A stretch of DNA of 64,000 nt, taken from assembly GCF_044647545.1 (NCBI RefSeq), contig NZ_CP172818.1; one strand, written 5' to 3'. The first letter of the stretch is position 1, and every line of letters starts with the position of its first letter. The notes under the pieces were generated by a model. That model worked only from the letters and a program-made list of their open reading frames with translations, was not told the DNA's origin and did not search any database. The translations under genes were made by a program, and so were the position numbers. Below, in pieces: positions 7,020-50,595 of this stretch. The DNA comes from Escherichia coli (lineage in GTDB: Bacteria > Pseudomonadota > Gammaproteobacteria > Enterobacterales > Enterobacteriaceae).

Positions 7020-7469
7020 ATGTTCTCACCGCAGTCACGCTTGCGTCATGCAGTTGCAGATACGTTCGCGATGGTTGTTTACTGTTCTGTCGTGAACATG
7101 TGTATTGAAGTTTTCCTCTCCGGAATGAGCTTCGAACAGTCTTTTTATTCCAGATTGGTAGCGATTCCGGTGAACATCTTAATTGCATGGCCATACGGTA
7201 TGTACCGCGATCTGTTTATGCGCGCAGCACGCAAAGTTAGCCCGTCGGGCTGGATAAAAAATCTGGCGGATATCATGGCTTATGTGACGTTCCAGTCACC
7301 GGTGTATGTGGCGATCTTGTTAGTGGTGGGCGCAGACTGGCATCAGATTATGGCGGCAGTCAGTTCAAACATCGTTGTTTCGATGTTGATGGGGGCGGTT
7401 TATGGCTACTTCCTCGATTATTGCCGCCGACTGTTTAAAGTCAGCCGTTACCAGCAGGTAAAAGCCTGA
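7020..7469 (+). CDS. alaE: L-alanine exporter
   Basis: ORF track 7020..7469, 149 aa; recognised AlaE (YgaW) membrane protein. Confidence 0.93.
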
Positions 7470-7480
7470 CCCTTCTTTTC

Positions 7481-7503
7481 GCGACTGGCATCGCCAGTCG
7501 CGT
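7481..7503 (+). terminator. putative rho-independent terminator after alaE
   Basis: Hairpin gcgactggc-atc-gccagtcgc followed by GTCTTTAA, read from sequence. Confidence 0.5.
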
Positions 7504-7505
7504 CT

Positions 7506-7850
7506 TTAACTGGCTTCGCCAAATAAACCATTCAAATAACGTTCAAGCGCAACACGCGAACTAAAGCCATGTGGGATACCGTAATGCTCATGACGTTCAC
7601 CCGCTAAATAGAGCGGAAATTGCTGGTAATGATCGCAAGTTTTAATATCGGAAGCGGGTTCAGCCAGTGTTGAACTACGTTCTTTTAATGTTGGATGAAT
7701 CACCAGGGCGGTACGTCCCATTCGCGCTTCGCGATTAACATAGACATAATTTTCCCCACGGCGGTAACCATACGCTTTCTGGGTTACCACATCGACAGTA
7801 AAACCGACTTTTTCAAGTACGCGCGCCACCTCGTCTGGTCGTAAATACAT
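7506..7850 (-). CDS. ygaC: DUF2002-family protein YgaC
   Basis: ORF track 7506..7850, 114 aa; conserved position between alaE and ygaM. Confidence 0.88.
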
Positions 7851-45645: not shown

Positions 45646-45793
45646 CAAATTCTCCAGCAATGACAGTTAATGCGCCGATACATTCACAAATCATGCCAGT
45701 TTTTAATTTACTGTTATTTAAAGAAATTAAATTCTGTAATGCAGGAAAAACGATGTCATCGACACTAGTGACGATGACATGTGTTGACAATGT

Positions 45794-46804
45794 TTATTGC
45801 GAAAGAGCAATGAGGGAGCCGCGGCGGATCAGTTTTCCGCTGAAGGTTTTCGGCGGTGAGAAATCCCCGCCATCGAGCATAAAAATCAGCCGTCCAATAA
45901 TTTCCTGAATCATCTCAGTTACCGGAATTTTTACGCTGGAGAGCGCCGGAACGGTGTAGGGGGCAATTGCGATATCATCGAATCCGATAACTGACACCTG
46001 CTCTGGCACCGCTACGCCGCGCTCGTGCAACGCTTTCATCGCACCTATCGCCATATCGTCGTTACTGGCAACTAACGCGCTAAATTTAGCCCCACGTTCG
46101 AGCAACGTTTCTACCCCTTCGGCCCCGCTGGCGGGCGTCCATTTACCGTTAGCGATAAGTTTTTCATTGAGCGCAATACCATGCTGCGCCAGCGCGTCTT
46201 TATACCCGGCAAGACGTTCAACGCTGGTGGGGGAATCCATCGAGCCGGTAAGGAAAGCAATCTCCTGATGTCCGGCGTTTATCAACTCTGCCACGGCGTT
46301 AAAGCTGGTCTGTTTATGATCGCACCAGACGCTATGGCTGCTGTTTTTGCGCAGGCGGCGATTAAGCACCATTATCGGCTGACTGTGTGCGTCAATGATG
46401 TCATCAATCTCATCCACGCTTAAAAAACGCGGGTAAATCATAATGGCGTCGCAGCGCAAATCCAGCAGATACTGAATCGCCTGGCGCTCTTCTTCGGCGC
46501 TGTGTTTACCATCTGCCAATAGCAACTGTCGCCCTTTCTCTTCAGCCATTCGCGCGGCATGAAACAGTAGTTCACTAAAATAAATGCCGTGGTAAAGCGT
46601 GTTGGTCACTACCAGCCCCAGCGTCTGAGTACTCTTCGCCGACAGATTGCGCGCCAGCAAGTTTGGGCGGTAACCGCTCTCTTCTACCGCCTGAAACACG
46701 CGATCTTTAGTCTCCTGGCTGACGTAGCCATTACCTGAAAGCACGCGGGAAACGGTCGCTTTTGAAACCCCGGCGCGCTTCGCCACTTCCAGCATCGTCG
46801 TCAT
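45794..46804 (-). CDS. ascG: LacI/GalR-family repressor of the asc operon
   Basis: ORF track frame 45794..46870; several in-frame ATGs at 46795-46813; start at 46804 (MTTMLEVAKRAGVSKATVSRVL...) chosen, ambiguous by a few codons. Confidence 0.88.
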   Translation of the reverse strand: MTTMLEVAKRAGVSKATVSRVLSGNGYVSQETKDRVFQAVEESGYRPNLLARNLSAKSTQTLGLVVTNTLYHGIYFSELLFHAARMAEEKGRQLLLADGKHSAEEERQAIQYLLDLRCDAIMIYPRFLSVDEIDDIIDAHSQPIMVLNRRLRKNSSHSVWCDHKQTSFNAVAELINAGHQEIAFLTGSMDSPTSVERLAGYKDALAQHGIALNEKLIANGKWTPASGAEGVETLLERGAKFSALVASNDDMAIGAMKALHERGVAVPEQVSVIGFDDIAIAPYTVPALSSVKIPVTEMIQEIIGRLIFMLDGGDFSPPKTFSGKLIRRGSLIALSQ

Positions 46805-46890
46805 CATTTTCATCCCTTTACACGCAATCAACGCAGTGTACTGCACCGTTTGCCGATTGTCCTTGCGCAATCGGCGGGAAAAATATTCAG

Positions 46891-46978
46891 GTGACCGGTT
46901 TCACAAATATAAAAAATGAACAATTAACTCTCTTGCTTATTTAGTGACAACTATTCATGATTTTGTGAAACCGGTTTC
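46891..46978. promoter_or_regulatory. two LacI/GalR-type operator palindromes in the ascG-ascF intergenic region
   Basis: gtgaccggtttcac (46891-46904) and gtgaaaccggtttc (46965-46978), both with a CCGG core. Confidence 0.6.
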
Positions 46979-47062
46979 CTAATTCCGTTTCAGCATCGGC
47001 ATTTTCCGTCACGTCGACTGATAACAACTACATCTACCCTACTGATAACAGGATAAAATCCG

Positions 47063-49953
<2,891 letters not shown>

Positions 49954-49980
49954 GCAACTACCGTCGCACGAACCAGGAAA

Positions 49981-50006
49981 GCCCGATAAGCGTAGCGCAT
50001 CGGGCA
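49981..50006. repeat. REP element downstream of ascB
   Basis: gcccgataagcgtagcgcatcgggca palindrome. Confidence 0.55.
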
Positions 50007-50124
50007 ATCTGGGGTTTGGCATCAGAAAAAAAAAGCTGGTGGCCTGTGCAGGCAGCACTAAGCTCAATAAAAAAGCGCACATCCCTGTTCTGATGTTCAA
50101 TTCCCTGAATTCCTTACTGAAAAA

Positions 50125-50595
50125 CTACTCTTCTTCCACCGCTAACTGCGCGAAGCCGCCGTTCCCTTCCCAGCCTTCCAGACGTTGATAAACGGTTTCC
50201 ACCGCATCTTTAATCGGCTGGGTCATCGGGTAGTAAAAGCCGACGATATCCGGCTGGATGCCGAGGAAAATCACTTCGCCAATGTCTTCTTTCAACTGGT
50301 CGATAAGGTAGTTCAGCGGCATGTTATGGGTAGTCATCATAAACATCTCGGCGATATCATCCGGGTCGATGATGCGGATTTCGCCGGGGTTTAGCCCCAT
50401 ATCCGTGGCGTCAACAATCAGCAGTCGTGTAGGGCGCAGTTCACGGATAGCGACGATGTCGTTTTCCGGTGCGCTACCGCCGTCAATCACCACCCAGTTA
50501 CCTTTCGGTGCGGCGGCGCACTTTTCCGCCAGCAGCGGACCTGCGCCATCATCGCCCATCATGCTATTGCCAACACAGAGTAAAACGTCAGTCAC
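50125..50595 (-). CDS. hycI: hydrogenase 3 maturation endopeptidase
   Basis: ORF track 50125..50595, 156 aa. Confidence 0.95.
   Translation of the reverse strand: MTDVLLCVGNSMMGDDGAGPLLAEKCAAAPKGNWVVIDGGSAPENDIVAIRELRPTRLLIVDATDMGLNPGEIRIIDPDDIAEMFMMTTHNMPLNYLIDQLKEDIGEVIFLGIQPDIVGFYYPMTQPIKDAVETVYQRLEGWEGNGGFAQLAVEEE

Follow-up and report, generated by a model that had tools for sequence, protein, structure and literature searches.

The ascG-ascF control region of Escherichia coli: an AscG operator at the predicted ascF start and an upstream CRP box that contains an AscG half-site

The window, by which we mean the whole 64-kb stretch of DNA that was analysed, is a piece of E. coli chromosome carrying hypF-hydN-ascG and, divergently from these, ascF-ascB. 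Several complete E. coli chromosomes matched positions 45700-47300 with 100% identity, and 5425 of 5426 genomes had at least a partial match; in one identical record, FDAARGOS_497, the gene order is hypF, hydN, ascG, ascF, ascB. The product of ascG had been named in an earlier note on this DNA as the adjoining LacI-family repressor, and annotation, PDB and family profiles all bear this out for the divergent gene: AscG matched PDB 3brq ('HTH-type transcriptional regulator ascG', E = 7e-190) and also 3dbi, its best-scoring family profiles were GalS and GalR, and it aligned to LacI residues 5-331 with 28% identity. On the other side, AscF scored 1026 bits against the NCBIfam equivalog NF007311 (cutoff 722) and AscB 1084 bits against NF007356, the 6-phospho-beta-glucosidase subfamily (cutoff 623). 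The genes and the elements discussed below are as follows.

45794..46804, minus strand: ascG, LacI/GalR-family repressor gene, 336 aa (annotation in a record 100% identical over 45700-47300)
46835..46863, minus strand: predicted ascG promoter, with a -35 hexamer AGGACA (46863 to 46858), a 17-bp spacer and a -10 hexamer TACACT (46840 to 46835)
46890..46905, no strand: site 1, CRP box GGTGACCGGTTTCACA, centre 46897.5; in Escherichia its spacer gives an AscG half-site plus core, CCGGTTTCAC, at 46895-46904
46933..46961, plus strand: predicted ascF core promoter, with a -35 hexamer TTGCTT (46933-46938), a 17-bp spacer and a -10 hexamer CATGAT (46956-46961)
46965..46980, no strand: site 2, primary AscG operator GTGAAACCGGTTTCCT, centre 46972.5; overlaps the predicted ascF transcription start
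47063..48520, plus strand: ascF, PTS cellobiose/arbutin/salicin IIBC transporter, first gene of the repressed operon (annotation and NCBIfam)
48529..49953, plus strand: ascB, 6-phospho-beta-glucosidase, second gene of the operon (annotation and NCBIfam)

The annotated ascG start is at 46804 and the intergenic region thus comprises 46805-47062, or 258 bp; the earlier note had begun it at 46871, a boundary that came from the TTG of the longest open reading frame and has to be moved. Position 46805 corresponds to K-12 2839265, and the region differs from that of K-12 MG1655 at four places in the 258 bp, namely 46867 (G in the window, A in K-12), 46926 (A, C in K-12), 46979 (C, T in K-12) and one T in the run at 47002-47005. 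About 727 of the 5426 complete E. coli genomes are without ascG-ascF-ascB, and in these the query match was restricted to the first ~98 nt (45700-45797), just reaching the 3' end of ascG. In strain SK1144 (locus L084), the place of the asc genes between hydN and hycI is taken by a hypothetical gene, a gene with a helix-turn-helix and a further small ORF. FDAARGOS_497, despite its 100% identity over 45700-47300, has a helix-turn-helix-domain gene directly after ascB (7333-7601 of locus L001). In the window, ascB is followed by hycI (50125-50595, minus strand), as in K-12, and hence the window departs, immediately downstream (49954-50125), from the record that matches its asc region best.

For comparison across genera we used 80 loci encoding relatives of AscG with 66-100% identity, of which 79 were scored for the operator; they come from Escherichia, Citrobacter, Enterobacter, Klebsiella, Raoultella, Kluyvera, Leclercia, Lelliottia, Phytobacter, Pseudocitrobacter, Aeromonas, Sodalis and others, and ascF is divergent from ascG in all of them. 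As an AscG operator we counted TGAAAC-type half-sites arranged as an inverted repeat with CG at its centre, the consensus being TGAAACC-GGTTTCA. The two strings that had first drawn attention to the region, gtgaccggtttcac at 46891-46904 and gtgaaaccggtttc at 46965-46978, are found exactly at these positions, but the distance of 74 bp centre to centre given for them by the earlier note is not correct. The CCGG cores occupy 46895-46898 and 46971-46974, with centres at 46896.5 and 46972.5, and are 76 bp apart, or 7.2 helical turns of 10.5 bp; the figure of 74 bp is the start-to-start distance of two strings that do not share a register, one being 4+CCGG+6 and the other 6+CCGG+4. The 9-mer ACCGGTTTC recurs at the same spacing of 76. 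The 10-mer CCGGTTTCAC, which is the core plus one complete half-site, has exactly two copies in the 64 kb, one in each site and in inverted orientation, where 0.14 would be expected, and the two copies lengthen to a perfect 13-nt inverted repeat, CCGGTTTCACAAA / TTTGTGAAACCGG. A symmetrised matrix was built from orthologous operators, those of Escherichia being left out. With it, site 2 ranked first in the window (29.8 bits) and site 1 second (11.5 bits), followed by a third match at 4.6 bits; 20 shuffled windows all stayed below 11.5 bits. From these ranks, scores and shuffles we conclude that both sites are real signals, although very unequal ones.

Site 2 is a genuine AscG operator, as the earlier note had proposed in calling 46965-46978 a LacI/GalR-type operator. 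It reads TGAAACCGGTTTCc and departs from TGAAACCGGTTTCA by a single mismatch (13 of 14 positions), a match of a quality seen in 0 of 100 shuffles. The palindrome TG[G/A]AACCGGTT[T/C]C was found in all 79 scored loci, from Escherichia to Aeromonas and Sodalis, and 46964-46981 is nearly invariant across them. The sole difference from K-12 is at the outermost base (46979), and this C/T difference is common within the species: 2135 E. coli records have the window allele over a 45-nt stretch and 2564 differ from it by 1-2 bases. The K-12 version of site 2, TGAAACCGGTTTCT, is the published AscG binding sequence of PascF (PMC8667592 Table S3), so that the comparison with published AscG sites comes out in favour of the earlier note here. 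In a synthetic promoter, AscG repressed strongly when TGAAACCGGTTTCT was placed at +1, and it had hardly any regulatory effect when the same sequence was placed at -61 (PMC8667592).

Site 1 is a different matter. Its symmetry is not that of a CCGG-centred palindrome but follows the CRP pattern, GTGA-N6-TCAC, with a centre at 46897.5. Compared with TGTGA-N6-TCACA it has one mismatch and is the only such match in the 64 kb, a count that is insignificant by itself since 1.5 are expected. The conservation over the 79 loci follows the CRP motif: G46891, G46893 and A46894 are 97-100% conserved and position 46892 is T or C (T in 72%), T46901, C46902, A46903 and C46904 are 100% conserved, and the central spacer at 46897-46900 is only 33-57% conserved. 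C46895, to which E. coli owes its CCGG, is found in a minority of 7 of the 79 loci, 71 having T. Moreover, ascF is a known cAMP-CRP target that was recovered by genomic SELEX with CRP, an assignment made at the level of the target and without a base-level position (Shimada et al. 2011, PMC3105977). Read as an AscG box, site 1 matches in the right half and core, CCGGTTTCAC, only; the left arm is two bases short and agrees with the AscG half-site at ~4 of 8 positions, and against the ungapped AscG 14-mer the site has three mismatches, which is chance level (2.59 such matches expected per 64 kb). We therefore modify the earlier reading of 46891-46904 as a LacI/GalR-type operator: an AscG half-site with its core is indeed there, at rank 2 and 11.5 bits, but the full CCGG palindrome is not, and the site is a CRP box first. 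Judged by its sequence, site 1 is primarily the CRP box of the promoter, in the free spacer of which an AscG half-site with a CG core appears only in Escherichia. Because site 1 scores 18 bits under site 2 and its left arm has only about half of the half-site positions, its occupancy by AscG in vivo is uncertain. Within E. coli the sequence is stable; site 1 in K-12, at 2839350-2839365, is identical to that in the window, and of 4699 E. coli records, 4532 have a 100% match to the 45 nt that enclose it.

The predicted ascF -35 and -10 hexamers and the operator keep one ungapped register across genera, TTG (46933-46935) being conserved at 89-100% and [C/G]ATGAT at 76-89%. A generic scan of 46750-47120 for sigma-70 promoters and terminators gave no matches, and it passed over the ascF promoter because the hexamers match at 7 of 12 positions and the threshold was 9 of 12; such weak hexamers fit a CRP-dependent, 'cryptic' promoter. 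Going by the -10 hexamer, the ascF start would lie at about 46968-46969, relative to which site 2 would be centred at about +5 and the CRP box at around -70.5 to -71.5. On the other strand, the putative ascG promoter is marked by the block GGTGCAGTACACTGCG and an upstream GACA, conserved in nearly all 79 loci. It lies outside the two sites, which bracket only the predicted ascF core promoter, and the earlier description of the sites as spanning the divergent promoter region thus does not hold. The ascG promoter block and the CRP box are 90 to 131 bp apart in the 79 loci, with no phasing between them; this rules out an action of CRP on the ascG promoter as a conserved feature, and CRP seems to be dedicated to ascF.

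Two further observations concern these promoters. At the predicted ascG -10, the 16-nt block at 46831-46846 (GGTGCAGTACACTGCG in minus-strand sense) is almost invariant from Escherichia to Aeromonas, far above the need of a -10 hexamer; it is unlike the AscG box and holds an inverted repeat, GCAGT-GT-ACTGC (5+2+5), at 46833-46844. This block could be a site for a regulator of ascG. Within the spacer of the ascF promoter, 46947-46952 reads ACAACT in E. coli, and most genera (loci L022-L077) have in the same register GAAACT, an AscG-type half-site, with A46949 conserved at 100% and A46950 at 92%; the GAAACT of the spacer may be an auxiliary AscG contact.

In 43 loci the CRP-type box is 75 bp from the operator centre, in 32 it is 74 bp away, in four 65 bp and in one 73 bp. 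The 65-bp class is shifted by one helical turn, as is expected of the class-I CRP positions -71.5 and -61.5. A second AscG-like site of at least 8 bits, on the other hand, was found in none of the 76 non-Escherichia loci, where the second-best score with the AscG matrix had a median of -14 and a maximum of 6.5, the latter in Kluyvera. The Kluyvera box is TGTGATCGGTTTCACG, with the spacer TCGGTT. The operator pair is thus a feature of Escherichia only (4 loci), with a weak trace in Kluyvera of at most 6.5 bits. From the alignments, a CRP box with a single operator appears to be the ancestral and conserved design. We further suggest, as a possibility that we hold with less than even confidence, that the composite CRP/AscG site is a derived addition specific to Escherichia, the plain CRP box and one operator having been kept in Citrobacter, Enterobacter, Klebsiella, Raoultella and Aeromonas. 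If this is true, the Escherichia spacer became CCGGTT in such a way that the repressor can also evict the activator, and the TCGGTT of Kluyvera would be a partial parallel. The added anti-activation could then be part of the reason why asc is 'cryptic' in E. coli, and the site would provide a small, datable case in which a site for a repressor evolved within that of an activator and left the contact bases of the activator untouched.

The metagenome-assembled genome labelled Citrobacter sp. HRGM_Genome_0066 has an asc locus of the Citrobacter type (L015) and, on a contig of 6.8 kb (contig 19, locus L003), AscG, AscF and intergenic sequences with 100% identity to those of E. coli; this contig is probably a binning contaminant. 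In Sodalis sp. dw_96 (L082), the intergenic region is 459 bp long and has tandem repeats upstream of ascG that resemble a reiterated 5' end of ascG (GACGATATGACGACAAT..GAAGTGGCGAAAGA).

Taking these findings together, we consider it highly probable that ascFB is served by a weak class-I CRP-dependent promoter that AscG occludes at the start, with an additional competition of AscG and CRP at site 1 in E. coli. In such a scheme, ascFB would be transcribed from a weak, cAMP-CRP-dependent sigma-70 promoter within the 258-bp region, with CRP bound at the class-I box of site 1, some 70.5-71.5 bp upstream of the predicted start, and an AscG dimer on the near-palindrome GTGAAACCGGTTTCCT of site 2 would cover the start (at about +5) and block RNA polymerase. 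The CCGGTT spacer of the Escherichia CRP box would create a perfect AscG half-site with the CG core, CCGGTTTCAC, and AscG at site 1, probably bound more weakly, would compete with CRP, adding anti-activation to promoter occlusion and helping to silence the operon. The sequences used in this scheme, with their statistics, conservation and phasing, come from the present analysis, and the literature supplies the repression of ascFB by AscG, its two sites there, its binding to the site 2 sequence and the targeting of ascF by CRP; the promoter hexamers, the start site, the occupancy of site 1 by AscG and the competition with CRP are inferred. The abstract of Ishida 2009 is said to give the consensus TGAAACC-GGTTTCA and, reportedly, to ascribe repression in part to interference with the binding of cAMP-CRP. 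Meinhardt et al. 2012 describe ascFB as having two AscG sites, with attribution to Ishida 2009 (PMC3505978). That AscG can use half-sites is plausible in view of the prpR-prpB region of K-12 (L086, 348430-348680), a published AscG target, which has clustered TGAAAC half-sites and no full palindrome; the cluster consists of four direct TGAAAC copies 10-12 nt apart and GAAACC-N7-GGGTTT.

A simpler alternative would be that site 1 is a CRP box only, its resemblance to an AscG site an accident in an unconstrained spacer, and that repression proceeds solely through site 2. Such a reading would account for a spacer that varies across genera, most lineages having no AscG-like sequence there, as well as for the chance-level agreement of site 1 with the ungapped 14-mer and for the near absence of a regulatory effect of AscG at -61 of the synthetic promoter (PMC8667592). 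It does not sit well with the exact 10-mer CCGGTTTCAC that site 1 has in common with site 2 (0.14 expected in 64 kb), with its second rank in the window at a score that none of the 20 shuffled windows reached, or with the fixation of the sequence in 96% of the E. coli records that have the locus. Kluyvera, moreover, has independently arrived at TCGGTT in the same spacer, half-sites can suffice for AscG, as the prpR-prpB target without a full palindrome suggests, and two AscG sites at ascFB are counted in the literature (PMC3505978). We therefore regard an accidental resemblance as unlikely.

The looping of DNA by the repressor, which the earlier note had said the arrangement would allow, fares somewhat worse and seems to us improbable. 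Here, AscG dimers at sites 1 and 2 would contact one another, loop out the ~76 bp between them and trap the ascF core promoter, as LacI does with O1-O3 and GalR with OE-OI. The geometry is not unfavourable: there are two AscG-like sites in E. coli, in agreement with the two sites counted in the literature (PMC3505978), the two best half-sites face each other by virtue of the inverted repeat CCGGTTTCACAAA / TTTGTGAAACCGG, and 76 bp falls among the spacings (75.5 and 77.5 bp) at which a stable relaxed LacI loop was seen in vivo (PMC3505978). The profiles closest to AscG are those of GalS and GalR, and GalR loops DNA without a C-terminal tetramerisation domain. The protein itself argues in the other direction, since the 336 aa of AscG run out at roughly LacI residue 331-334, so that nothing in AscG corresponds to the helix by which LacI tetramerises. 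In an assay at four spacings (70.5, 72.5, 75.5 and 77.5 bp), the chimera LLhA/Q55A, which carries the AscG regulatory domain and is thus not native full-length AscG, varied less than 2-fold over the spacings, and the GalR and TreR chimeras were spacing-dependent (PMC3505978); Meinhardt et al. 2012 themselves contrast the chimera result with the two natural AscG sites of ascFB. Site 1, furthermore, offers one good half-site only, the element that is conserved in phase at site 1 is the CRP motif, and the absence of a second AscG-like site of at least 8 bits from all 76 non-Escherichia loci means that a loop cannot be the conserved mechanism.

Finally, published GalR models flag both positions in K-12, at 2839356 (centre; matrix score 12.66) and as AAGAAACCGGTTTCAC at 2839425-2839440, which supplies the in-silico check with GalR/LacI family models that the earlier note had proposed, but we reject the paralogous GalR and GalS as the real ligands of these sites, which would make them cross-targets and is very improbable, because both matches are in-silico predictions from sequence (PMC5110547), the operator co-varies with the presence of ascG in 80 of 80 loci, and AscG represses through exactly this sequence (PMC8667592).

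Promoter occlusion at site 2, with competition at site 1, thus remains our preferred account, and the locus to which it applies is already known: it is the published AscG/CRP control region of the cryptic beta-glucoside operon, and the ascG-ascFB region of E. coli K-12, with its AscG boxes and CRP box (Ishida, Kori & Ishihama 2009, J Bacteriol 191:6136), is the same locus without any difference of substance from the window. Its arrangement is reminiscent of that of lac, whose class-I CRP-dependent promoter, likewise catabolic, has a LacI-family repressor on the start site and a second, weaker operator upstream, within the CRP site or close to it. In lac, O1 is at +11, the CRP site at -61.5 and the auxiliary O3 at -82, and LacI is a tetramer that forms loops between O1 and O3 and between O1 and O2. 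The upstream asc site differs in that it is the CRP box itself, whereas in lac it is a neighbour of the CRP site, and AscG differs from LacI in having no tetramerisation helix and a regulatory domain without the looping signature (PMC3505978). A likeness can also be seen to the OE/OI repressosome of GalR and to the anti-activation exerted by CytR with CRP, in which members of the same family use an upstream site to interfere with CRP-dependent activation. GalR loops 113 bp with the help of HU, and CytR binds between two CRP dimers and needs a protein-protein contact with CRP; neither the HU-aided loop nor the CytR-CRP contact is suggested by the asc sequence. What is mildly new is that the second AscG site would be specific to Escherichia and would have arisen in the unconstrained spacer of an older CRP box. 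The findings are of little importance beyond a correct annotation, in which the upstream 'operator' is to be entered first as a CRP box and the spacing as 76 bp, together with the evidence against looping; the cross-genus comparison also has a modest yield, in that it places the second AscG site in Escherichia only and finds the CRP box and start-site operator conserved as far as Aeromonas.

With regard to the ascF leader, a scan of 46600-47300 against Rfam (E up to 1) found no RNA family, folding of the predicted E. coli ascF 5'UTR gave a z-score of 0.13 and hence no significant structure, and RNAalifold returned no consensus hairpin for 33 ascF 5'UTRs, because the variable segment is rich in indels and aligns poorly. 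In most genera, GTTTCA(T) occurs ~8 nt past site 2 (E. coli 46987-46992) and is followed by a segment of varying sequence in which a putative hairpin can be picked out by eye in each genus, for example CATTGC..GCAATG, TCATCGC..GCGATGA or CATCCCGCC..GGCGGGATG. On the 3' side of the variable segment, immediately before the ascF ATG, lies the highly conserved GTACCCTACTGATAAAACAGGAT (loci L006-L080). Loci of the Enterobacter type are without the hairpin segment and have an ascF UTR that is ~50 nt shorter. In the window, ACTGATAACA occurs twice just upstream of the ascF ribosome-binding site (47017-47026 and 47041-47050, 24 bp apart), and the first copy looks like an Escherichia-specific duplication, since other genera keep only the copy closer to the ribosome-binding site.
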